A stretch of DNA of 64,000 nt. It comes from an uncultured Chthonomonadaceae bacterium (GTDB taxonomy: Bacteria > Armatimonadota > Chthonomonadetes > Chthonomonadales > Chthonomonadaceae). Where the stretch lies: contig CAWIEK010000060.1 of the NCBI GenBank assembly GCA_963835065.1, forward strand, positions 64,001 through 128,000, in the 5' to 3' direction. The notes beneath the pieces are model-generated. The model saw nothing but the letters and a program-made list of their open reading frames with translations, searched no databases and had not been told where the DNA came from. Shown here in pieces: positions 20,636 to 37,603 of the stretch. The translations under genes and the position numbers were made by a program. Position 1 is the stretch's first letter. Every line of letters begins with the position of its first letter.

Positions 20636-20765
20636 GCGCGTTTGCGGTTCGTGTTTGTTGGGCGGTGCGGGAAATGGAATAGAGGTATAATGACGATGGC
20701 AGCCGCCACTCAACCGGAAGAAGCAGCAGAGAAAATAGCCGGTGTGCAATGCCGGGGACTCGAAA

Positions 20766-22175
20766 ATGCCCATGACTGAGCCTGAAATCCTGGCCGCGTT
20801 TTACAATAACTGTGATCCGGTCAAACCCGCCGACGCGCCGTTCTATGTGGACTGTACGGATGTGCGGGGCGGGGCGGTTTTCGCCATTAAACTTTATACT
20901 GAACTGTCGCAAACGAATGGGCGCATCCATTCGCTGTTTACGGGACACATTGGGTGCGGCAAATCCTCCGAACTAAAGCATCTTGCCGACAAGATGAGCC
21001 ACAAAACGCTCCTGTCCGGCCAAAAGCGCTTCTTTCCTGTCATCGTGAATATGTCGGAGTATCTGGATGAATACGATGTCAGCACGACGGATATTCTGCT
21101 GTCCGTTGTCACGGAATTAGCCGACGCGCTGCGAAAACAGGAAGGTATTGAGATCGCTCCCTCCTACCTCAATCGCCAGTGGGACGAAGTGAAAGACTAT
21201 CTTGGCAGCGAACGTGAGATAAAGGAAGGGGAACTGTCACTGCCGTTTATCAAGACCAAAATGCAGCGTCTGCGCACGGACCCTGTTGCGCGGCATAAGG
21301 TGCGCGAGAAACTGCTTCCGCAAACCAGCAGCCTGCTGGAAGAGATCAATCTTGCTTTTGTGGCCGCGCGGACGGCTCTGCTCAAAAAAGCGCCCCAGGA
21401 CGGCGGCCAGCGTTACTCGGATTTTGTGCTGATTCTGGACAACCTGGAAAAGGTACAACGGCTTGTGGCAAACGCGCCGGGCGACGCTTCACAGCGCGCG
21501 TTGTTTATCGAAGGAGCGCCACAACTTACCGCGCTTGACGCGCACGTTGTTTTTACCGTGCCCCTCGCTCTGGTTCGCAGCGAGGGAAATTTGCTGATGC
21601 AGAAGTACAGCAAAGAGTTATTCGTGCTGCCCATGATTAAAACCGAACAGCGGGGACACGCGCATCTGCCCTTTGAAACAGGACGCGAGAAACTGGTGGA
21701 GTTGCTGGAAAGGCGCGTACCGTCCGGCGTATCTCTTGCCGATGTATTTGAAAAGGACGCGCTTGACTTTCTGATTGAATACTCTGCCGGCCATGTCCGC
21801 AACCTGATGATGTTTGCCCGCGAAACCACGCTGTATGTCAATGGTAAACTTCCGATTCCCCTCATTGCCGTACAGCGCGCGATTGCGCAGACGGTAAGTA
21901 TCCTTGTGCCCTCCGTCCGTCCTCACGATTGGGAATTGCTGGCGCAACTCGAACTGTCGGAATTGCAGGATTGGAACAACAACGGCCTGGAGGAACGTCG
22001 TTTGCTGGAAAATCTATGCGTGATGGAGTACATCAACGGTGGTGACGATGAACCGCTGATTGAATCATCCCCATGGTACGCCGTGAATCCTGTTCTGCGC
22101 ATACAGCGCGCCTTCAAAAATGCCGTCAAAGCCGAAAAGCAAAAACAGACATTGCCGCAAATCGTCACGGCATAA
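20766..22175 (+). CDS. P-loop (STAND-like/AAA) ATPase
   Basis: Walker A GHIGCGKS, Walker B LILDNLEK, YSAGHVRNL, C-terminal WYAVNP. Confidence 0.85.
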   Translation: MPMTEPEILAAFYNNCDPVKPADAPFYVDCTDVRGGAVFAIKLYTELSQTNGRIHSLFTGHIGCGKSSELKHLADKMSHKTLLSGQKRFFPVIVNMSEYLDEYDVSTTDILLSVVTELADALRKQEGIEIAPSYLNRQWDEVKDYLGSEREIKEGELSLPFIKTKMQRLRTDPVARHKVREKLLPQTSSLLEEINLAFVAARTALLKKAPQDGGQRYSDFVLILDNLEKVQRLVANAPGDASQRALFIEGAPQLTALDAHVVFTVPLALVRSEGNLLMQKYSKELFVLPMIKTEQRGHAHLPFETGREKLVELLERRVPSGVSLADVFEKDALDFLIEYSAGHVRNLMMFARETTLYVNGKLPIPLIAVQRAIAQTVSILVPSVRPHDWELLAQLELSELQDWNNNGLEERRLLENLCVMEYINGGDDEPLIESSPWYAVNPVLRIQRAFKNAVKAEKQKQTLPQIVTA

Positions 22176-22184
22176 AGTGAGCAT

Positions 22185-23150
22185 GTGGTGGACGTACAAC
22201 AATCCTCTCTCTTTGACTTTCCGCCCGATCTGGAAGGCCAGAAAAACGCTCTGACGACGGCCCTGCAAATTGTGCAGGACTTTGCGCTGTACATCGTTGT
22301 CTCGGAACCGTCGCGCGTCCGCCCGCGCCTGATGCGCGAAATGGAGGCGCGGCTTGGCGGCAAGACTATACAGCATATTGTCGTTCCAAAAGAAACCAGA
22401 AACCTCCTCCATCTGCTTGCCGACAATCTGACCGACCCTTTGCCCGACATCGTGTTTGTCTACGGCCTTGAAAACAGCATTTCCGCGTCCGCAGAACCCC
22501 GCTCTCATCCCCTGCTTCTAAACCTGAACGCTGCCCGAAACAATTTTTATGCTCTGCTGCCGCGCCCCATGGTACTGTGGATTCCCGCCTTTGTCTTAAA
22601 GGCTATTGTCGAGGCCGCGCCGGATTTCATTTCGGTGCGAAGCGGCGTGTACACGTTCCCCTTAAACTCTGATGAACGCCGGGAAATGGCTGATTCTGCC
22701 TTAATCATTGGTCAAACAAAACTGCTTGGTTTAGAATACATGGAGGGGGAAGCCCGAATCAGAGAGATGCTTAGTCTCTTATCAGAATACCGTTCGCTCC
22801 CGACACACGCGCGCAGTTCACAGGACGAAGCGCGAATTTTGAATCAATTGGCGCTTGCTTATCATGCTATAGGTAACTACTCGGAAGCGGAGCCATTGTT
22901 CACCGAAGTATTGGCAATACGGCGTCAGAGGTTGCCTGAAGGACATGCGGACATTGCAAACAGCCTCAACAACCTGGCAGCGCTTTACGATGCACAGGGG
23001 CGCTATCAGGAAGCGGAGCCACTATACAAGGAAGCTTTGAAGATTATTCGTAAGATTTTGGGAGAGGAACATCCACAAACAAAAAGTTTTATTACAAACT
23101 TGGAGAGGTTCCTTGCTGACAAAACCAAGCGTGATTTTGCTTCTGAATAA
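22185..23150 (+). CDS. Degenerate NTPase-like N-terminal domain + kinesin-light-chain-type TPRs
   Basis: LNLNAARNNF...MVLWIP...AAPDFISVRSG N-domain; SLNNLAALYDAQGRYQEAEPLY TPRs. Confidence 0.85.
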   Translation: MVDVQQSSLFDFPPDLEGQKNALTTALQIVQDFALYIVVSEPSRVRPRLMREMEARLGGKTIQHIVVPKETRNLLHLLADNLTDPLPDIVFVYGLENSISASAEPRSHPLLLNLNAARNNFYALLPRPMVLWIPAFVLKAIVEAAPDFISVRSGVYTFPLNSDERREMADSALIIGQTKLLGLEYMEGEARIREMLSLLSEYRSLPTHARSSQDEARILNQLALAYHAIGNYSEAEPLFTEVLAIRRQRLPEGHADIANSLNNLAALYDAQGRYQEAEPLYKEALKIIRKILGEEHPQTKSFITNLERFLADKTKRDFASE

Positions 23151-24508: not shown

Positions 24509-26986
24509 ATGAGCCAGAACGCCACTCCGGGAATAGGGACTCGCGCCTTCATCAGCCACAACAGCAAGGACAAACCGTTTGTTCGCACTCTGGAAGCCGA
24601 TTTGCAAGCGAATGGTTGCACGGCCTGGGTGGACGAAAACCAGATGTATGCGGGCGATTCGCTGCTGCAAGGAATTTCAACCGGCCTGCAGAACAACGGT
24701 TACGTACTTGCCGTATTTTCAGCCCATTTTGCGGCGTCGAATTGGGCGCAACAAGAAATTTCGGCAGCAGTTGCTATGCAAAACAGTGGCAAGGGAATCA
24801 AAGTCATTGTCTTGCGGCTCGATGATACACCTTTGCCTGCTTTGCTGCAAGGCAGTATCTACGTTGATTTTCGCGGCGATTATACTGCCGGCCTGAACCA
24901 ACTCCTCCGCGCGCTCACCCGTCCCGTTGCCACACCCATACAAGCCCCCGTCACTTTGTCTGTAGACCGTGCCAAACTTGTTGCGGTACTCAATAGTTTG
25001 GATAGCGTGTCGCTAACAAGCGTCATCAATCACATTGCTGGTGCGGGTACGCATGACAGTCCTCTACAGCCCGTGCCAATACGAGTTCAGGCGTTGCTCG
25101 GATTTGCCGAAGGCGCAGTCGGGCCTGGCCTGAACGCGGTTGCATCCGTCGTTGTGCAGTTGTTCCCTAATACGGCCTCTAAAATCGGCCCTTTCCGTTA
25201 AGCCCTGCCGTTTCCGGCACAACGACAGGGCGTTCGACACTGCCAACATTCAATGCGTACTTTACGGGACGTGAATGCCAGATGAACGACTTGCGCACTG
25301 CTCTGACAAGTGGCGGATCGGCGGCGGTGACGCAGGCGATCTCCGGTTTGGGCGGCGTGGGGAAAACCGCGCTTGCCGTCGAGTACGCGCATATTTATCG
25401 TGACCACTACGATACGCTGCTTTTTGCCCTCGCTGACTCCATTACCTCGCTGAACAGCGCTTATAAAGCTATCGCCGCGCAGTTGGGATTGCCGCAGGCC
25501 GCAAGCGATGATTTTGAAGTTGTGGCACAGGCGGTAAAACACCATCTGAACACGGCAACGCCCTCCCGCAAAGGCATTACACCTTACCTGTTGATTTTGG
25601 ACAACGCCGACTTTGGCACAACGCTCAAGCCCAACGATCTAAAAAGATTTCTACCCAATACCCCGACCGGTCATGTGCTGCTGACAACGCGCGCTCAAGT
25701 CCTGCATGGCGGGTTGGGTGTAAAGCCAAACCACGTCCTGCGCCTGGACGTAATGGTGGAGGAAGAGGCGTTTCGTTTTCTGGCAGAGCGCGTAGGCGGC
25801 GAGGGCGCGATACGGACGGGCGATGAGGCAACAGCGGCCTCAGAACTGGCGCGTGAGTTAGGGTATCTGCCGTTAGCGCTGGAGCAGGCGGCGGCCTACA
25901 TCGCGCAGCCAAGTCGTACCTTTCGCAACTACCTGAACCTGTACCGCAAGCGTTCGATTGAGGTTGTGGAACGCAACGCGCCGGAAACGGGAGATTATAA
26001 CAAAACAGTAGCGACGACGTGGCAAATCAGTTTTGATGAGGTAGAGCGCGAATGTTCGGCGGCGGCGGACTTGCTGCGCCTGTGCGCGTTTGTTGCCCCG
26101 GACTCTATCCCCATAGAAGTGATTTTAGCAGCAGCGAACGGTGAGGTGGAAAGCATTACGACGTTCTTTGGAATTTTGGAAGATACTGAAGTCAACAAGG
26201 ACAATGGCAATACTTTGCTGCAAGCGCTGGCACGTTACTCCCTGATAATGTGGAAGCATGAGTCGCATACGTTCAATGTGCATCGGTTGGTGCAGGCTGT
26301 AACACGCTGGCAGATGAAAGCGGATATACGGCAAGCATGGATAAAACAAGCAGTAAACGTCTTGAACTTGGCATTTCCGAACTCTGATTTTGAGAATTGG
26401 ACACGATGTGAACGACTAACTGCTCACGCACAAGCACTAGAGAAATTGTCTCAGAAAAGACGAGCATTGCAGCGACTCGGTAACACTGCTGGGCCGCATC
26501 GCTTCTTACTTGTATCAGCGTGGGCGCTATGAGGAAGCGGAGCCACTTTATAAAGAGGTATTAGCAGTTTATCGGAAAAATTTACTCTCAAATCACCGAG
26601 AATTTGCTGTTTATCTTAACAATCTGGCAGTGCTTTATAATACGCAGGGGCGTTATGTAGAGGCAGAAGCACTAATCAACGAAGTGTTAGCATTACGGCG
26701 TAAGAACCTGCCGGAAAATCATCCCGATGTTGCAAACAGTCTTAACAATCTGGCAGCAGTTTACCATAAGCAGGGGCGCTATGTGGAAGCCGAGGTTTCC
26801 TACAAAGAAGCCGTAGTTATTCTGCGCATTAAATTTGGAGATGACCATCCAAATACAAAATTTGTCGCTGAGAACCTGAAAACATTCCTTGCTGAGAAGA
26901 AAGAGCGTACTGCCTTTGTGCAACATTTCAAACTGCCGACTTCACTTTCAAAACAGCGGCAATACCGTTTGAAACGGCCCAAATAA
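24509..26986 (+). CDS. TIR-helical-NB-ARC-TPR NLR-like protein, split by two apparent frameshifts (about 25183 and 26455)
   Basis: TIR (AFISHNSKDKPFV, SNWAQQE). The NB-ARC frame is open from 25183 and reads NAYFTGRE...GLGGVGKT...LILDNAD...GYLPLALEQAAAYI...HRLVQ, followed by LNNLA TPRs. Confidence 0.82.
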
Positions 26987-27005: not shown

Positions 27006-27400
27006 ATGTCCTTAACCATCACGCTGCCGAATGAATTGGAACAGTTTCTGCAAAACCATGCGCAGCGCGCCGGAATTCCCGTTGAAACGCTGCTTGCGCG
27101 CACGATTGTCGAGCGGTGGGAGAGTGTCCGTCGCGCTCCCGGTCTGCCGAACCGCGAAAGTGAACTGTTGCTGCGTTTGCAAACCCTGTTCCCTCCGAGC
27201 AGACGGACGAATATCGCGCGCTTTGTGCCAAAAGCGATGCCGGAACGCTCGCCCCGATGGAGCGGGAATGGTTGTTTGCGCTCCTCGAACAGCGCGACCA
27301 TCAGAACGCTGAACGCCTCGAAATCGTCGCCGAACTCGCGCATCTGCGCGGCATTTCCTTGCGCGAAATGATGGCGCAATTAGGAATTCGACCGGAGTAG
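27006..27400 (+). CDS. Small antitoxin-like protein (apparent frameshift about 27195)
   Basis: MSLTITLP N-terminus. The alternative frame continues EQTDEYRAL...NAERLEIVAELAHLRGISLREMMAQLGIRPE to TAG at 27400, just before the HNH gene. Confidence 0.7.
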
Positions 27401-27406
27401 CGCTGT

Positions 27407-27829
27407 ATGGCGGTTGTTTCCGAAGCGATACGCGCACAGGTCGTGACGCAGGCTGGCGGCGTTTGCGAATACTGCCGCTACCCGGAGGAGTTCAATTCCG
27501 GGCGGTTCGCTGTAGACCACATCCTCCCGCGCGTTCTTGGCGGCGCAGATAACTTGAACAATCTTGCGCTTTCGTGCCGCAATTGTAACAAGCGCAAGCA
27601 GGACGCGACGGAAGCGCAAGACCCCTTGACGGAAGAAAGTGTCCCGCTGTTTCACCCACGTCGAGATCGTTGGGAAGACCATTTCGCATGGAGTGACGAT
27701 TTTCGTCATATTATCGGCCTGACCCCAACCGGACGCGCGACCATTGCCCGATTACAAACAAACCATAGTGGCGTCGTCCGGCAGCGCGAAGTATTACATC
27801 AATTGGGATTGCACCCCGTACCCGAATAA
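27407..27829 (+). CDS. HNH endonuclease
   Basis: CEYC, VDHILP, NLALSCRNCN, PLFHPR, GLTPTGRATI. Confidence 0.92.
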   Translation: MAVVSEAIRAQVVTQAGGVCEYCRYPEEFNSGRFAVDHILPRVLGGADNLNNLALSCRNCNKRKQDATEAQDPLTEESVPLFHPRRDRWEDHFAWSDDFRHIIGLTPTGRATIARLQTNHSGVVRQREVLHQLGLHPVPE

Positions 27830-27966: not shown

Positions 27967-29530
27967 ATGCCCCTCAAGATTGCCATGATTGGAGCCGGTT
28001 CTATCGGCTTTACGCGCCGCCTGATGGCCGATTTGCTTACCGTGCCCGAATTTGCCGACACCACCTTTGCTTTCACCGACCTCAACGCCCACAACCTGGA
28101 TATGGTGAAGCAGTTGGCGGAACGCGACATTGCCCACAACAACCTTCCCGCTAAAATCCAGTCCACGACGGATCGCCGCGCCGCTATTGCCGATAGCGAT
28201 TACGTGATCTGCATGATCCGGCAGGGCGGGCTGGAAGGCTTTCAAACCGACATTGACATTCCGCTCAAGTACGGCATTGACCAGTGCGTGGGCGACACCA
28301 TTTGCGCGGGCGGCATCATGTACGCGCAGCGCGGCATTGCGGCCCTGCTGGACTTCTGCAAGGATATACGGGAAGTCGCCAAACCCGGCGCGTTGTTCCT
28401 CAACTATTCCAACCCGATGGCGATGCTGACGTGGGCGTGTAACAAATACGGCGGCGTGAAAACCGTCGGCCTGTGTCACGGCGTGCAGGGCGCGCAGCAC
28501 CAGATTGCCGACTGCGTGACCCATTGGGCAAAGGGGCAGAAACTCATCGGGGAAGACGAGAAAGTCCACCGCCGCGATATTGAGTTCACGTTCGCGGGCA
28601 TCAATCATCAAACGTGGTGCCTGAAAGCGCAGTGGCGCGAGTATGATTTAATCCCCATGCTGCTCGGCCTGTTCCAATCCCATCCCAAGTACCCGACAAC
28701 CGAAAAAGTCCGCATTGACGTGCTGAAACGCTTCGGCTACTATTCGCACGGAAAGCAACGGGCATTTGTCCGAGTACGTGCCCTGGTATCGCAAGCGCCT
28801 GGACGAAATCAACAAGTGGATTGACCTCAGCACCTGGATCAACGGCGAAACGGGCGGGTATCTGCGCGTCTGCACGGAAGGCCGCAACTGGTTCGAGACG
28901 GACTTTCCCAATTGGCTGCAGCAGGAACCGCCCACGTTCACGCCCGACAAGCGCAGCGACGAACACGGCTCTTATATTATCGAAGGGCTGGAAACCGGGC
29001 GGACGTACCGGGGCCACTTCAACGTGCCGAACACGGGCATCATCACCAACTTGCCCGATGGCTGCATCATCGAATCATTGGGGTTTGTGGATCGAAACGG
29101 GATGCACATGGCGCACATCGGCGAACTGCCCTTAGCCTGCGCCGCAACCTGCAATGTCAGCGTCAGCGTACAGCGCATGGGCATGGAAGCCGCTGTTCAT
29201 GGCGACGTGACGCTCTTGAAGCAGGCCATGCTCCACGACCCCCTTGTCGGAGCCGTGTGCGACCCCGAAGAAGTGTGGCAAATGACGGACGAAATGCTCG
29301 TGGCGCAGGCGGAGTGGCTGCCGCAGTACGAGGCAAAAGGGGAAAGTGAAAAGGCGAAAGCCAGACTTGCCGAAGCGGAAGCGAACGGAACCCGCGTCAA
29401 GACGATGGAAGGCTTTGCAGGCATGGCGCGGCTGCACACCAAAACCGTCGAGGAGATGGCCGCGCAAAAGGAGGAAGCCCGCAAGAACGCGCAGGCTGCC
29501 GACAAAGGCAAAATGACGCAGAATGCGTAA
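27967..29530 (+). CDS. melA: Family 4 glycoside hydrolase (alpha-galactosidase/glucosidase), apparent +1 frameshift about 28747
   Basis: IGAGSIGF, DQCVGDT, LNYSNPM, GLCHGV, AGINHQ. The conserved YSTESNGHLSEY is restored by removing one C. Confidence 0.88.
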
Positions 29531-29735
29531 AAGCCGGTGGGTATAGCAGTTGGGTGTCGGTGCAGATGGAGTGCGAGAGATTGTCGAGAAGGAATATGAA
29601 ATGTCGGGTGTCGTGAAGGAAAATAGAGAAGGAATCCGTTACTCGGCGTCGAATGATACCGATAACGAAGTCGCCTGACGTGTCCCGACACCCGACACCC
29701 GATACCCGACGACCCTTCCTAAAGGACAGCCGTAA

Positions 29736-32700
29736 ATGACCCCCACAGTACCGAAGCAGACGAGTCATTTTACATCACGGGGGGAACGCTTCCGCCCGAT
29801 GCGCGTTCCTACATCGCCCGCGATGCCGACGACGCCCTGTACAACGCCCTGCTTGCCGGCGAAACCTGCTACGTCCTCAACAGTCGGCAGATGGGCAAAA
29901 GCAGCCTGTGCGTTCGCGCAATGGGCAGGCTGCAAGACGCGGGGGCGCGTACCGTTTTCCTCGATCTGTCCAAGTTCGGCGCCAATAACCCGACCGTAGA
30001 ACAATGGTACTTTACGCTCCTCAACGAAATCGGCAGGGAACTCGATTGTCGCCCCGCCCTGTTCGCGTACTGGAAGCAAAATGACGCCCTGCCGTTCGTG
30101 CAGCGCGTGTTCGGCGCTCTGACCGACATCGCGCTGCCCGCCGCCCCCTCCTCCATCGTCGTGTTTGTGGACGAGATTGACATCACGCGGACGCTGCCGT
30201 TCGAGACGGACGAGTTCTTTGCCGCGATACGGCAACTCGTGGTGGGCAGAGCAACGGACGCGAAGCTGAAGAAGTTGGCGTTCTGTCTGTTGGGAACCGC
30301 CGCGCCGCAGGACCTCATTCAAAACACGGCCATCACGCCCTTCAATGTCGGCAAGCGCGTGGAAGTGACGGACTTTACCCCGCAGGAAGCCGCGCCCCTT
30401 GCAGAAGGATTGAACCACGGGGGACACGGGGAACACGGGGGAAAGCGGGAAAGGGAAAGCAGGGGAGAGAAACTGCTGCAACGGGTATTGTATTGGACCA
30501 ACGGCCACCCCTACCTGACGCAACGCCTATGCAGCGCCATAGTCGAAGCCCAAACTCCTCCTCCGACACCCGACACCCGAAACCCGATACCCTCTCCTCG
30601 ACACCCGACACCCGACACCCGACACCCTCCGTGGACTCCCTCTGCCACAACCTCTTCCTCTCCCACGCGGCGACGGAAAGCGACGACAACCTTGCCAATG
30701 TGCGCAACCGCCTGCTCAAAAACGACGCGGACATGGCTTCGCTGCTCACGCTGTACGGGCAGATACGGGAAGGCAAGCGCGTACCGGATGACGAAACCAA
30801 TCCCCTCTGCGCGTTGCTAAAGTTGAGCGGCGTGGCGAAAGTGGAAAACGGTTTGTTGAAGGTACGCAACCGCATCTACGCGACCGTGTTCGATGCGAAG
30901 TGGGTCACAACCCACATGCCGGACGCCGAACTGCGACGGCAGAAGGAAGCGTACCGCAAAGGCGTGACGCGAACAGGAGCGTGGGCGGGAGCGATTATCA
31001 CGTTGTTTGTCTGTCTCGCCGCGTTCGCCTTCTCCAAAGCCAACGAAGCCCAAAGCAATGCAAGAGAGGCTCACAAACAGACCAGGTTGGCGCAGCAAAA
31101 TGCGCAGTTGGCACAACGAAATGCTGAGAAGGAGACTGCTGCCCGCGCCGACGCCGACAAAAGCGCGCAGCAGGCTCGTAACAATGCGCAGAAAGCACAG
31201 AAGCAGACACAACTCGCCAAACAACGTTTGAAGGACGTACAAAAAGCCAACTCGGCTACCCAAAAGGCTCTCACGAAAGCACAGCAAAATGCCATAGAAG
31301 CTAGGAAACAGGCACATCTTGCCTCCGACAACGCCCGTCGCGCGGAGCAGGCCAACGGCAATGCTTCCAAAGAGAGCGCGACACGCTCGCAAGGCAGAGC
31401 AACTCGCGCTAGAAGAGAAAGACAAAGCCAACCACAACCTGTACGTTGCCAACATGAACCTGATACAAAGGGATTGGGACAACAACAATGTCGGGAGTGT
31501 ATTGGAGTTGTTGGAAGCGACACGCCAACGATACTCCCACGAGTTCGAGTGGGGATACTGGAACCGCCAGTGTCATCTGGATTTGAAAACGCTCAAAGGG
31601 CATACAGACGATGTTGATGCCGTCGCCTTCTCTGCCGACGGCAAGCGGATTGTCACGGGCAGCAGCGACAAAACGGCGAAGGTATGGGATGCGCAAACCG
31701 GACAGGTAACACTTACGCTCAATGGGCATACGAACTTTGTTACTGCCGTCTGCTTCTCTCCCGATGGCAAGCGGATTGTCACAGGCAGTTGGGACAAAAC
31801 GGCCAAGGTGTGGGACGCGCAAAGCGGACAGCCACTGCTCACGCTCAAAGGGCATACAGACAATGTTGATTCCGTCTGCTTACTCTCCCGATGGCAAGAG
31901 GATTGTCACGGGAAGTAGGGACAACACAGCGAAAGTGTGGGATGCGCAAACCGGACAGGAAATACTTACGCTCAAAGGGCATACTCCCAGTTACTATGCC
32001 GTCGCCTTCTCTCCCGATGGCAAGCGGATTGTCACAGGTGGTTACGACAAGACGGCGAAGGTGTGGGACGCGCAAAGCGGACAGCCACTGTTCACGCTCA
32101 AAGGACATACAAACGATATTGATGCCGTACGCCTTCTCGCCCGATGGCAAGAGGATTGTCACAGGCAGTAGGGACAAAACAGTGAAGGTGTGGGATGCGC
32201 AAACTGGGCAGGAAACACTCACGCTCAATGGGCATACAAACGATGTCCTTGCCGTTGCCTACTCACCAGATGGCAAGAGGATGGTCACAGGCAGCTGGGA
32301 CGACACGGCGAAGGTGTGGGACGCCCAGAGTGGACAGGAGACACTTACGCTCAAAGGACATACTAGTTTTGTTACTGCCGTCGCCTTCTCTCCCGATGGC
32401 AAGAGAATCGTGACGGGTAGTTGGGACAAAACAGTGAAGGTGTGGGATGCGCAAACTGGACAGGAAACACTTACACTCAAAGGACATACGAACACTATCG
32501 CCGCTGTTGCCTTCTCGCCGGATGGCAAGAGGATTGTCACGAGTAGCGGAAATGTTTTTTCAGGTGGTTACGACAAAACGGCGAAGGTGTGGGACGCGCA
32601 AAGCGGACAGCCACTGCTCACGCTCAAAGGACATACGAACTTTGTTACTGCCGTCGCCTTCTCTCCCGATGGCAAGAGAATCGTGACGGGTAGTAATGAC

Positions 32701-32757
32701 CACACGGCGAAAGTGTGGATTTCCGATCCGAATGCAAAAAGTCTGCGTGAAAAATAG
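29736..32757 (+). CDS. AAA_35 (STAND-like) NTPase - TM - coiled coil - 9x WD40 protein, five apparent frameshifts
   Basis: FYITGGTL, RQMGKSS, VFVDEID, TPFNVG, WTNGHPYLTQ, VRNRIY, TM helix, Ala/Gln/Lys coiled coil, GHT...WD repeats. Breaks near 29742, 30590, 31380, 31878 and 32130. Confidence 0.82.
31585..32720 (+). repeat. Nine highly similar ~126-bp WD40 coding repeats
   Basis: Recurrent ACGCTCAA(A/T)GG(G/A)CATAC...GATGGCAAG...GTGTGGGA(T/C)GCGCAAA. Confidence 0.9.
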
Positions 32758-32854
32758 AATTCGACAGCAGGCAACAACTGTCACTAACAGTTTAGATTTT
32801 GTGCGCAACATTCCATCACGCGCCCGCAGTTCCGCGCTTTTCAGGAGGGGCTTC

Positions 32855-34927
32855 ATGCCTGCCAGCACAGCCTTTGACGCGCGTATCGCGCACGTTCTCT
32901 TTCTCGACATCGTTGGTTACTCCCGCCAGACGACGACGGCTCAGTCGCGCCTGATAGAGAAACTGAACGCTGTCCTCAACACCGTTCCCACGCTTGTCGC
33001 TGCAAAGTCCGCCGAAGCCGTCCACATTATGCCCCTTGGCGACGGCATGCCGCTCGCGTTCTGGGAGGATGTCCTCGCGCCCGTTCGCGCCGCTGTCGAA
33101 ATCGCTCATGCCGCCAACCGGAACGCGCTGCCCCTTCGCATCGGCCTTCACAGCGGGCTTGTTTTGCCGCAGATAGACGCCGCAGGCCGCGATAACTTTA
33201 TCGGGGAAGGCATCAACACCGCGCAGCGCGTCATGGACTTCGGCGATGCCGGACACATCCTCCTCTCCGCCCAATACGCCGCGTGGCTTCAGCACTTCGA
33301 CGAATGGGCTGATTTAATCCACCCGCTCGGCGAAGGAACCGCCAAACACGACCAGATCATCTCCCTGTACAGCCTGTACGGGGAGGATTTCGGGCTTGCC
33401 ACTCCGCCCGCCAAACTCACCAGGCCCGCCACAAACCAGTCCACTCCCGCCGCGCAAATTGTCGCGCCCGGCAAGCGCATCGTACTGCTGTATCGTCCCA
33501 ATCTCCAGCCCGACGAGAACGTTCTGCACACGCTCGAAGCCCGCCTGCAAATGCTGGGGCACGAGGTCTTCATAGACCACCAACAAAAAATCAGCCCCGC
33601 GTGGGCCAGAGCCGTTGAGGAGCCAATTCGCCGCGCCGACGCCGTTGTCGCCATCGTTTCTCCGCTCTCCCTTCGCTCCGAAATGCTCGAATACGAGGTC
33701 GAAACCGCGCACGACCAGTTCCTCCACTCCGGCAAACCCATCCTCCTGCCCGTTCGTATCGGCCCGGAAGAGCCGCCGGAAGGAGCCATCGTTTCCATCC
33801 TCCAGCCGCTCCATTATTTCACCTGGAACAGCCCCGACGACGACGAGCGCCTGATTGCCGAACTTTTATCCGCCATTACCGAACCCCTCAAGCCTCGTTC
33901 CGAAGAGATACAGTTGGAACCCATTGGCGGCGCGGTTCCTCCCAACTCTCCGTTTTACGTGCGCCGGGAGTGCGATGCGGAGTTTTTCAAGGCGCTGGAC
34001 GCGCGCGAAAGTATCCTGTTGGTGAAAGGGGCGCGGCAGGTCGGCAAAACCTCCCTGCTGGCGCAGGGAATCATTCACGCGGAGGAAGCAGGCTATCGCG
34101 TTGCCATGACCGACTTCCAGAAGTTCAATACCGCCCAACTCGCGTCCGATGAAATCTTCTACAAACTGCTTGCCACCATCCTTATGCGGCAATTAAAGTT
34201 TGCCTACGATTTTGAAGGCGCCTGGAACGCGATTTTAGGGGGAAATATGTGCATGGAGGACTTCCTGCGTGACCTTCTGAATTCTGCCGGGGAACATCTG
34301 GTCTGGTTCATGGACGAAGTAGACAAAGTCTTTGCCGCGCCGTTTGCCACCGACTTCTTCGCCCTCGTTCGCTCGTGGCACAACTCCCGCTCCACCGAGC
34401 GCTCCGGTCCCTGGCGCAAGCTCACGGTCGTCATCGGCTACGCCACCGAAGCCCATCTCTTCATTCGAGACCTCAATCAATCCCCGTTCAACGTCGGGCG
34501 CAAACTTAATCTGGAGGACTTCAAGCTTCAGCAGACCGCGGACCTGAATGGACGGTATGGCGGGCCGTTGAAAAGCCACGCCGAAGCCGAAGCCCTCTAC
34601 GCCCTGATTGGCGGACAGCCCTTCCTCACCCGCGCTGCCCTCGACGCGCTGGCGTCCGGGCGCGAATCGCTGCCTTCCCTCCTCGCACACGCCGACGCGG
34701 ATGACGGACCGTTCAGCGACCACCTCAAGCGCCTGCTTATCTCCGTTTCCGTTCTGCCGGATGTGGCCGATTATGCGCGGGCTGTGCTTGCCGGTTCCGC
34801 CCTGCCGCATCAGGACGCCTATTACCGCCTGCTTTCCGCCGGAATCATCAAGCATCCCGGCGGCGGCAAGGTAGATTTCCGCTGCGAACTCTACCGCCGC
34901 TATCTTTCCCGCCTGTTGCCGGCATAG
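32855..34927 (+). CDS. Class III nucleotide cyclase + TIR + AAA_35 NTPase
   Basis: FLDIVGYS, GDG, RIGLHSG, GEGINTAQRVM (cyclase); VFID...AW...SEMLEYEV (TIR); GARQVGKTS, MDEVD, SPFNVG, GGQPFL (AAA_35). ATG after SD AGGAGG. Confidence 0.9.
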   Translation: MPASTAFDARIAHVLFLDIVGYSRQTTTAQSRLIEKLNAVLNTVPTLVAAKSAEAVHIMPLGDGMPLAFWEDVLAPVRAAVEIAHAANRNALPLRIGLHSGLVLPQIDAAGRDNFIGEGINTAQRVMDFGDAGHILLSAQYAAWLQHFDEWADLIHPLGEGTAKHDQIISLYSLYGEDFGLATPPAKLTRPATNQSTPAAQIVAPGKRIVLLYRPNLQPDENVLHTLEARLQMLGHEVFIDHQQKISPAWARAVEEPIRRADAVVAIVSPLSLRSEMLEYEVETAHDQFLHSGKPILLPVRIGPEEPPEGAIVSILQPLHYFTWNSPDDDERLIAELLSAITEPLKPRSEEIQLEPIGGAVPPNSPFYVRRECDAEFFKALDARESILLVKGARQVGKTSLLAQGIIHAEEAGYRVAMTDFQKFNTAQLASDEIFYKLLATILMRQLKFAYDFEGAWNAILGGNMCMEDFLRDLLNSAGEHLVWFMDEVDKVFAAPFATDFFALVRSWHNSRSTERSGPWRKLTVVIGYATEAHLFIRDLNQSPFNVGRKLNLEDFKLQQTADLNGRYGGPLKSHAEAEALYALIGGQPFLTRAALDALASGRESLPSLLAHADADDGPFSDHLKRLLISVSVLPDVADYARAVLAGSALPHQDAYYRLLSAGIIKHPGGGKVDFRCELYRRYLSRLLPA

Positions 34928-35532: not shown

Positions 35533-35800
35533 TTGCGGCGCAACGCTTCAACGAGCGGGAAGGCACGGTGATAGCGCGTCTCGCCGGGGTGGTGACTATC
35601 GGGGAGTTGTGGCGGTTTATGGAGTTGGAGGGAACAACCGCGCGGCTGGATTCGCGCAGTTATCACATTGATCGCTTGCACAAGATCATGGGTATTTTGC
35701 TGCATTTGACCGGGATGTGCCCCTCAACGGACGGCGCGGCGCAACCCTGAAGATAATGGCGGTCGGTGGCATTGCGAGTAAGCAGAGTGGAGAAGCCAGA

Positions 35801-37530
35801 ATGAATTGGAACGAGGTGTTGACACCGGAGAAACTTCAACACTATGCGGGAAGCCGCTCGTATGCGGCAGGTGTCGAATACGCCCATGCCGGAGCCGTCA
35901 CCGGCCTGGTGGCGAGCGAACACGCGCTTACGGCGTTTGTACAGGGAACGGAAACCTATGAGGTCACACTGGAAGTTGACGCGGAAGGCGATTTGCTCGC
36001 GGATTGCTCCTGCCCCTACGGAGCTGAAGGCAATTTCTGCAAACATTGTGTCGCGGTCGGCATTGCCTGGCGGGAAGACGCCGTTTCTGCCGAAGGAACT
36101 TCTGTGCCGACCTGGACAGCGTTTCAGGAGTATCTGGAAAAACAGGAGAAAGCAACCCTCGTCGCTCTCTTACTCGAACAAGTCCGCAAAGACACCAACC
36201 TGCAAAATCATCTCCTGCTCAAAATCGCGCAGGCTGCGCCCGATGCCCCCGACATGAACGCCTTTCGTAAAACCATTCGGCGTACCTTTGCCGTTTCGGG
36301 TTTTCTCGAATACGGGGAGGTCTACGATTATGTCAGCGGCATTGAAACGGTTCTCCAATCGCTGCGGGCGTTGCTGAAAAGCGGCTTCGCACTGGAAACC
36401 CGGCAACTGACCGAATATGCCCTCGGAGAACTGTACGAACAAATCCCCAACGCCGACGACTCCAGTGGCTCTATCGGAGGTGTGTTATCGGAACTGCACG
36501 TCCTGCATCTTCAGGCCACGCTCCAGGCTCCGCCGCCACTGCAAGAGTTGGTGGAATGGCTGTTGAAAATCGAACTGGCAACAGAGTGGGACATCGAAGT
36601 CGGCTGGAAAGACTACCTGCCGGTTCTGGGCGAATGGGGGAAGCAACGCTTCTGCGCGGAAGTAAAAGCCCGATGGGAAGCGTTGCCCCACCTTGCCCCC
36701 GGTGACAAATCCGCCTACTCCGGCAGCCGTTATGCCCTCACGCGCTTGATGATCGCGTTTGCCGAAGAACAGGATGATTTACACGCTGTTATCGCCATCA
36801 AAAAGCGCAATCTGTCCTTGCCGTATCACTTTCTGGAAATCGCCCAACTCTATAACAAGGCTGGAGAACCCGACGCTGCCCTGGAGTGGGCGGAGAAAGG
36901 CCGCGCGGCGTTCCCGGACAATACCGACGAACGTTTGCTCGACTTTCTGATGGAAGAATATACGCGCCGGGAGCGCTATGGAGACGCCTATGCCATTCTC
37001 TGGCAGCGCTTTGTGGAACGCCCCATGCTTGTCGCCTACCAACTCCTCCGCGAGTATGCGCAGGTGCGTGGCGAATGGGACGCCTGGCGCGAGCGTTGCT
37101 GGCAGCATCTCCGCGCCGCGCGGGCGCAAAAACCGAAGCCGAAAACGGCGGGATCGCTATGGTTCCCACATGCCTATGACCATTCGGAAGAGGTGCGTAT
37201 TTTGCTATGGGAGGGACGAAACGATGAGGCCTGGCAGGAAGCGAGCGACGGCGACTGTTCCAGAGACCTGTGGCTGGCGCTGGCTTCCACACGCGAAGTA
37301 AGCCATCCAGAAGACGCGCTGCGCCTCTATCAAGAGGAGGCGAGAAGAGGATCGCGGCAGCCACCGGGGATTATAGCGAACCGTTACGCTTTCTGCTCAA
37401 AGCGCGCGAGATTCTGTTGCGAACCGGACGCGGCGACGAGTTCCGCAGCTATAGTCAGCGTCTGCGTACCGAACACAAACGCAAACGCAACTTTATCAAA
37501 TTGCTCGACGCCAACCATTTCCCGGCCTGA
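35801..37530 (+). CDS. SWIM zinc-finger domain helical protein (apparent frameshift about 37343)
   Basis: VQGTETYEV, CSCPY...FCKHCVA. The C-terminal LRTEHKRKRNFIKLLD is in the shifted frame. Confidence 0.85.
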
Positions 37531-37603
37531 CGCGCCTGCCGCTTGCGACGAACCGGGGCGCAACGGGTACGGATAGAGCAACCTCGAAAATTCCTTACGC
37601 TTT

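Follow-up and report, generated by a model that had tools for sequence, protein, structure and literature searches.

The locus described here occupies positions 29,736 to 34,927 of a 64,000-nucleotide stretch of DNA from an uncultured Chthonomonadaceae bacterium (GenBank assembly GCA_963835065.1, contig CAWIEK010000060.1, positions 64,001 to 128,000; hereafter the window). It consists of two genes in the same orientation on the forward strand, gene B followed after 97 bp by gene A. Both matched the Pfam family AAA_35 (PF14516) above the curated cut-off of 27 bits that was used to define membership (gene A: 238.6 bits, E 1e-70; main piece of gene B: 61.5 bits, E 8e-17). An earlier note on this DNA had described an adjacent, co-oriented pair of AAA_35 genes, which agrees with this layout, and had read gene B as one AAA_35-transmembrane-coiled coil-WD40 chain; its nine WD40 repeats and one hydrophobic segment were recovered, but not in a single reading frame, the gene being broken by five frame changes. 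Next to the frameshifted gene for a membrane STAND receptor, the locus thus has an intact gene for a cyclase-TIR-STAND protein, and it is a member of a widespread modular two-gene family. Coordinates are collected in Table 1. Scanning for promoters and terminators returned chance-level counts (2 vs 2.2 and 9 vs 7.8, respectively).

Pfam assigned to gene A the domain order Guanylate_cyc (E 1e-6), TIR_2 (E 1e-14) and AAA_35. The gene most likely starts at 32855, with the Shine-Dalgarno sequence AGGAGG directly upstream and with homologues beginning at the same point; on these grounds the start at 32696 returned by the open reading frame (ORF) finder was rejected. Residue conservation was measured in the 120 best of 1386 homologues; those named among the matches listed belong to Chthonomonadaceae, Fimbriimonadaceae and Capsulimonas. 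The two metal-binding Asp residues and the N-x3-R motif of the cyclase, already picked out in the earlier note, are conserved in the aligned homologues (D18: 100/105; D63: 104/109; N121: 116/117; R125: 115/117), as are the TIR Glu that the same note had located in LEYE (E281: 120/120) and both Walker motifs. These residues suggest that A is a catalytically competent class III cyclase and, with E281 also aligned to the Glu of 7uxr and Cat1, a TIR NADase. At positions 59 and 114, which we take to be the base-selecting sites of adenylyl and guanylyl cyclases, A has Met and Asn, and the canonical pair (Lys/Asp or Glu/Cys) is absent; among homologues, position 59 is Leu in 70 and Ile in 23, with Lys or Glu never among the top residues, and position 114 is Asn in 107/116. 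Because the base-selecting positions are Leu/Ile/Met and Asn, the cyclic product cannot be read from the sequence of A. The best profile match of the cyclase domain was Rv1900c (E 4e-9).

An AlphaFold2 model of A computed with 78 homologues had a mean pLDDT of 89.9. Its cyclase domain matched 3et6 (Z 20.0; root-mean-square deviation (rmsd) 2.2; 167 residues aligned) and its TIR domain 8p2m (Z 15.8; rmsd 2.7; 133 aligned). In the model the ATPase combines a P-loop with a helical/winged-helix extension, and its top two matches were the archaeal proteins 2qen (Z 21.5; rmsd 4.0; 307 aligned) and 2fna (Z 20.7; rmsd 3.9; 305 aligned), that is, Paby2304 and SSO1545, which are presumably MNS-clade proteins; A thus appears to have an MNS-like STAND fold. 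The A ATPase had no match in a phage collection of 50,697 records. Elsewhere, the same cyclase subfamily was seen fused straight to a WD40 propeller, lacking ATPase and transmembrane segment and lying directly before a family 4 glycoside hydrolase (GH4), in congener G001 (L236:6970-8703), and fused to what by eye is an apparent FGE-sulfatase domain (G000:C11:121458-122843).

Gene B has a single hydrophobic segment at 30976, preceded by the basic stretch RRQKEAYRKGVTR. In a model of the nearest intact B protein (L043), the ATPase, a helix and a low-confidence transmembrane stretch come first, followed by a helix of 50 residues and a double propeller of 14 blades. The fold list of this model was filled by propellers, and the B profile found no match among PDB sequences; the B ATPase was tied to that of A by sequence. 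Across five whole in-frame WD40 units of gene B, variation falls at repeat positions 8, 9, 11 and 27. Much the same positions vary in the genes of two of three relatives, the third having six units, one of them out of register.

We scored 171 loci (L024 and L041-L210) with custom profiles; all had been gathered by likeness to A, so the sample is biased towards relatives of A. They contain 174 distinct A-type genes, 44 of them too close to a contig end to judge. The synteny survey that the earlier note had proposed as a check found pairing to be the family rule, with a B-type gene adjacent to 114 of the 130 decidable A genes (37/45 among those bearing a cyclase). The usual order outside A's own subclade is A then B (86/143). 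Pairing is kept despite a reversal of order in that subclade (31 genes), where 12 genes have B upstream, 4 downstream and 1 convergent, 2 have none and 12 are undecidable, so that B comes first in 12 of the 17 paired genes. Tandem A genes without B occur at L077, L082 and L092, and tandem B genes adjoining one A at L043, L121 and L144.

The A and B ATPase domains of 98 pairs (two B genes counted twice) fall into separate clades (support 1.0), with 26% identity between cognate partners. Distances in the two trees are correlated (r 0.886 over the 98 pairs; maximum 0.28 in 999 permutations), and the nearest neighbour is shared in 39 of 96 pairs, against about 1 expected. Walker A and B are intact in 98/98 A and 97/98 B domains, and an Arg no more than 2 residues after the motif PFNxG, presumably an arginine finger, is present in 90/98 and 95/98, respectively. 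The genetic side of the sensor/effector pair proposed in the earlier note is thus upheld by adjacency, mirror trees and retention of the Walker motifs in both partners. Plasmid carriage was also found (45 plasmid records; 99 matches), and the A-then-B order recurs on cyanobacterial plasmids of Nostoc HK-01 (TIR protein, then WD-40 protein) and Tolypothrix PCC 7910 (two AAA-like genes) and on an Abditibacteriota plasmid; the second gene was unlisted in 1 of the 4 plasmid regions inspected. In congener G002, GH4 is followed directly by sequence corresponding to 35401 of the window, and the whole pair is therefore an insertion at a variable slot.

The A proteins (n=174) comprise 59 of cyclase-TIR-ATPase and 68 of TIR-ATPase architecture, with 47 lacking a TIR domain by the custom profile. 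In the 73 of 75 extra N-terminal regions that were scanned we found kinase (47), wHTH (13), BTAD (11), TIR_2 (5) and trypsin (1) domains; a divergent pair at G000:C29:23624-27000 has an A protein with what by eye is a trypsin-like head. The cyclase-TIR head of the earlier note is one of several swappable heads, of which kinase is the commonest other, and the module is therefore broader than had been assumed. On the B side, a hydrophobic segment lies right behind the ATPase in 84/98 partners, in 83 of them as the only such segment; among the other 14, eight are cut or frameshifted at that place and two apparently lack the segment. Of 83 B tails, 35 gave at least three WD40 hits and 23 fell into one cluster, whose two scanned members matched PEGA. 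Scanning 22 of the 26 tail representatives listed returned WD40 (7), TPR (3), PEGA (2), PQQ/TPR (1), carboxypeptidase-regulatory (1), NHL (1) and no match (7). PEGA and carboxypeptidase-regulatory-like domains are extracytoplasmic. Over several phyla, one head (cyclase, kinase, wHTH/BTAD or TIR) can take the place of another, and so can the tails that follow the membrane segment (WD40, PEGA, TPR or NHL). L067, L068, L071 and 20 further loci form a subfamily with a PEGA-containing tail of about 420 residues, often beside an outer-membrane barrel gene.

Table 1. Features of the A/B locus, its surroundings in the window, and cyclic nucleotide monophosphate (cNMP)-binding genes at other loci
Feature	Position	Strand	Remarks
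Gene B: AAA_35(type B)-transmembrane-coiled coil-WD40 x9; five frame changes in assembly	29736..32757	+	AAGGA upstream of ATG
B: type-B AAA_35 STAND-like NTPase domain	29768..30920	+	PF14516 E 8e-17; 66% identity to intact L043 B
B: Walker A NSRQMGKSS	29879-29905	+	
B: Walker B VVFVDEID	30158-30181	+	
B: in-frame short-repeat insertion (GGHGEHGG...) in AAA domain	30411..30465	+	Relative's contig 9 bp shorter
B: CCCGACA heptamer-repeat insertion (TPDTRHP) in AAA domain	30561..30632	+	Contains second frame change
B: single predicted transmembrane helix, N-in/C-out predicted	30976..31038	+	Hydropathy 2.11; basic residues on N-terminal side
B: predicted coiled-coil stalk, Ala/Gln/Lys-rich	31040..31430	+	Sequence; helix 395-445 in L043 relative's model
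B: nine WD40 repeats, 126 bp each (two 127, one 147)	31586..32742	+	Mean nucleotide identity 78%
Gene A: class III cyclase-TIR-AAA_35(type A), 690 aa, intact, no transmembrane segment	32855..34927	+	
A: class III nucleotide cyclase domain	32876..33424	+	D18, D63, N121, R125 kept; Met59/Asn114 at base-selecting positions
A: TIR domain	33467..33889	+	E281 aligned with Glu of AbTIR DWTNYELD
A: type-A AAA_35 NTPase domain, C-terminal helical/winged-helix part	33902..34918	+	Walker A GARQVGKTS 34028-34054
477-aa P-loop protein, then 321-aa TPR protein; apparent two-gene ATPase/TPR module	20742-23150		P-loop protein: no Pfam, NCBIfam or PADLOC match
TIR gene, then NB-ARC/DUF7779 and TPR pieces in differing frames	24509-26986		Probable broken TIR and AP-ATPase-TPR locus
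Small frameshifted-looking ORF and HNH endonuclease, just ahead of GH4	27006-27829		Weak PtuB matches (HNH)
GH4	27967-29530		Frame interrupted by an extra base near 28743
Tandem CCCGACA heptamers, between genes and within reading frames	29683-29716 and 30561-30632		Double unit: 46 copies in 30 clusters across genome; CACGGGG-type repeat also present
SWIM zinc-finger protein	35717-37576		PADLOC PDC-S62, E 1.5e-44 over ~500 residues
Stand-alone cNMP-binding genes	L063:12062-12544; L136:1042-1515; L137:12057-12647; L149:878-1417		

Among 817 neighbouring genes, the recurrent families were outer-membrane barrels (18 loci), ECF sigma factors (7 loci) and a small cNMP-binding protein; these neighbours point to signalling. 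The last is encoded tail to tail with A, 3-19 bp apart, at 4 loci (from related organisms and so not independent), and is a candidate receiver of the cyclase product. AAA_35 was found in 27/151 genomes of the phylum and in 0/14 control genomes, with 21 matches in this genome. This patchy spread and expansion, together with the near-identical yet variable WD40 repeats, point to conflict, and the restriction of WD40 variation to a few fixed positions, the empty slot of the congener and plasmid carriage likewise look like traits of a surveillance system. Of the two roles offered in the earlier note, immune or signalling, the second is favoured; the first found no positive support in the defence searches given below.

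We propose, with belief and doubt about evenly matched, that A and B serve surveillance signalling, as a relay from one STAND protein to the other across the inner membrane. The proposal builds on the domains, the conserved residues, the pairing, the mirror trees and the swappable heads and tails. We infer the topology, the A-B contact and the role, and also oligomer-driven activation, the last because class III cyclases are active as dimers and TIR NADases as assemblies. B would be a single-pass receptor whose WD40 propeller is predicted to lie in the periplasm and to bind a cue, likely foreign or envelope-derived. Cue-bound B would cluster its cytoplasmic ATPase, and the clustered domains would co-assemble with the ATPase of A, bringing the A cyclase domains into active dimers and the A TIR domains into a NAD-consuming array. 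The output would be a cyclic-nucleotide message with a NAD-derived signal or growth brake, and the system would not be a dedicated intracellular phage trap.

Several observations weigh against this relay. Mirror trees are a mark of inheritance as a unit, not of contact, and kin are not independent. No B adjoins 16 of the 130 decidable A genes, and A's closest relatives are among those without one. In run X1, a contig that matches gene A at 97.6% identity (49 of 2063 bases differ) lacks B because the upstream leader at 29700 is joined to 32872; the joint is probably not a mere dispersed-repeat match, 29648-29700 being single-copy in the genome, although the 287 bases that precede it in that contig did not align to the window. 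Around the closest genome orthologue of A (82%, in G020), neither a WD40 end in the 405 bases available upstream nor a B in the 10 kb downstream was found. The cyclase lacks the canonical base-selecting residues, the usual Trp four residues ahead of the TIR Glu is Met in A, and in a wider sample the Glu is kept in 113/122 TIR domains and replaced by Gln in 8/122. A topology with the propeller outside the cytoplasm is predicted for B from hydropathy and charge alone. Nothing closely related to the small cNMP-binding neighbour is encoded in this genome (best E 1e-6). Finally, the five frame changes of B within 3 kb exceed the background of its assembly (P 3e-5). That background, 0.115 per kb, was taken from 105 orthologue-like genes (identified from 400 kb of relative G020), 13 of which have frame changes, and the assembly is therefore error-prone.

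The frame changes bear on this copy of B, a question separate from the mechanism of the family. They lie at about 29750, 30590-30625, 31370-31430, about 31876 and about 32129, and divide the gene into six frame segments. The earlier note had raised the possibility that the WD40 gene is a true pseudogene, in which case A would be an orphan or be served in trans. We consider this somewhat unlikely, although the five changes are far above the background, the nine WD40 repeats compare with 13-14 in intact relatives, two in-frame repeat-derived insertions interrupt the B ATPase, and the near-identical strain of run X1 lacks B at the same site. In addition, of the nine B-type genes that could be judged in this genome, six are fragmented (C7, C29, C53, C54, C58 and C60; long frames at C1, C44 and C68; C48 ends at a contig edge), vs 9/95 with short frames elsewhere, where 86/95 have frames of at least 680 residues. 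Against decay, B has frame changes only and no nonsense codon within its coding segments, and 13/105 ordinary genes of the assembly are likewise frameshifted. The adjoining GH4, frameshifted in this assembly, is uninterrupted in four relatives (five matches; open frames of 532-614 aa). Relatives' contigs from runs X2 and X3 have base differences at or near three broken places of B and GH4: a one-base difference near 29750 (X3), one gap over the 30600 region (X2), and absence of the GH4 extra base in both. Within the propeller, the two extra bases occupy a single column of the repeat, as expected of a systematic consensus error. We therefore think that the frame changes are probably assembly error rather than decay.

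A dedicated anti-phage role by abortive infection would have B detect adsorption or DNA injection at the envelope, A kill the cell by NAD depletion and the cyclase alert a further effector. It would fit the invariant TIR Glu of the close homologues, the patchy, plasmid-borne occurrence at a variable slot, and the conflict-type genes no more than 10 kb away in the window (TIR, NB-ARC-TPR, HNH and the SWIM protein matching PDC-S62); cyclase-STAND fusions are also termed immune clade 1 in the available part of 10.64898/2026.08.12.744502. PADLOC and NCBIfam, however, gave no match for A as a whole, for its ATPase or for the B ATPase. We searched the first 450 residues of 148 of the 218 neighbours within 5 kb at 34 Armatimonadota loci against PADLOC (E <= 1e-30) and found no enrichment of defence genes (5/148 vs 2/148 controls from G020; Fisher p 0.45), in a small sample with a strict cut-off and one control genome; several of the five matches were partial and to general domains. 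Most of the other heads are kinases or transcription-regulator domains, outer-membrane barrels and ECF sigma factors are what recurs among the neighbours, and the sensor is predicted to lie outside the cytoplasm, all of which make the anti-phage explanation improbable. That A and B are co-inherited without forming a cognate complex, each oligomerising by itself, A serving any B in trans, or A acting alone on a cytoplasmic cue, would suit the lone A genes, the B genes of this genome without an adjacent A (C44, C53) and the tandem B-B and A-A arrangements, but is very doubtful given adjacency maintained over phyla and order reversal, the mirrored trees, and an A without its own sensor beside a B without its own effector.

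The relay proposed for A and B was compared with known systems. The modelled ATPase of A, with 2qen and 2fna as nearest folds, would belong with the MNS-clade STAND ATPases. The Npun2340/2341 family was reportedly treated by Leipe et al. in 2004; its name is said to refer to two adjacent genes, and that work may already mention the gene pair. In the accessible text of PMC8195603, where the Npun2340/2341 (MNS) family is named, the uses are single STAND-FGS, MNS-GT4 or STAND-TPR-GreAB-PIN proteins, whereas A and B would form an effector/receptor pair across the membrane. Avs and bacterial NACHT proteins, as described in the parts of PMC13581612 available, share with A/B an effector, a STAND switch and a repeat sensor and are activated by oligomerisation, but carry all parts in one cytoplasmic chain that binds phage proteins, whereas A and B divide these parts between two STAND proteins: nothing follows the ATPase in A, and B is headless, with the transmembrane segment ahead of its sensor. 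Neither A nor the B ATPase matched PADLOC. That source sorts its proteins into 589 clades, and neither the AAA_35 label nor a tested accession was found in the accessible portion of its supplements.

Pycsar and Pucsar systems (PMC11224242 and 10.64898/2026.08.12.744502, each available in part) resemble A in that one locus combines a TIR domain with a class III cyclase. In those systems, which make cUMP, cCMP or cGMP, the cyclase is encoded apart from a TIR or transmembrane effector, and a cNMP-binding domain, absent from A, controls the TIR. A had no PADLOC match to these systems, and a cNMP-binding gene abuts A in 4 loci only. The A model matched the Pycsar-type structures 8jsz (Z 16.6) and 7r65 (Z 15.3), with ordinary adenylyl/guanylyl cyclases scoring equal or higher, and the base-selecting residues F100/R142/Q144 of EaPycC would, by Asp offset, correspond to F16/M59/L61 in A. 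Thoeris shares with A a TIR domain with a catalytic Glu; in A the TIR is fused to an ATPase, no ThsA or ThsB profile matched A, and no ThsA-like neighbour recurs. The architecture thus differs from those of Pycsar, Thoeris and Avs, as the earlier note had held. In plant sensor/helper NLR pairs, labour is divided between two linked NLR genes, and the A/B arrangement is like them in this respect. The internally conserved WD40 repeats of B recall those of the fungal HNWD non-self receptors (PMC12881547, available in part). A and B differ from both in having another ATPase family, a predicted external sensor and swappable enzymatic or regulatory heads. A search of the literature and supplements (further sources, available in part: PMC10907252 and PMC7159879), with most subscription journals outside its coverage, returned no description of AAA_35 pairs or their function.

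The bacterial NLR-like proteins characterised so far sense phage proteins, each as a single cytoplasmic chain, whereas the receptor/effector split proposed here recurs, with other inputs and outputs, in Armatimonadota, Acidobacteriota, Verrucomicrobiota and cyanobacteria. We tentatively suggest, at somewhat less than even confidence, that AAA_35 pairs represent a kind of signalling through bacterial membranes that has so far gone unrecognised, a two-component system in which a STAND receptor in the membrane and a soluble STAND partner would join by ATP-dependent co-assembly; this would take the place of His-Asp phosphotransfer and link plug-in inputs (WD40, PEGA, TPR, NHL) to plug-in outputs (cyclase, TIR, kinase, wHTH/BTAD, protease). 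The locus in the window would be the cyclase-NADase version, with a hypervariable propeller that senses non-self and possibly a non-canonical cyclic nucleotide as its message. This version would be the easiest to assay, and its unusual base pocket may yield an unexpected product. If the suggestion is true, NLR-type oligomerisation also carries signals through a membrane, and bacteria possess a counterpart of sensor/helper NLR pairs with many natural combinations of input and output.

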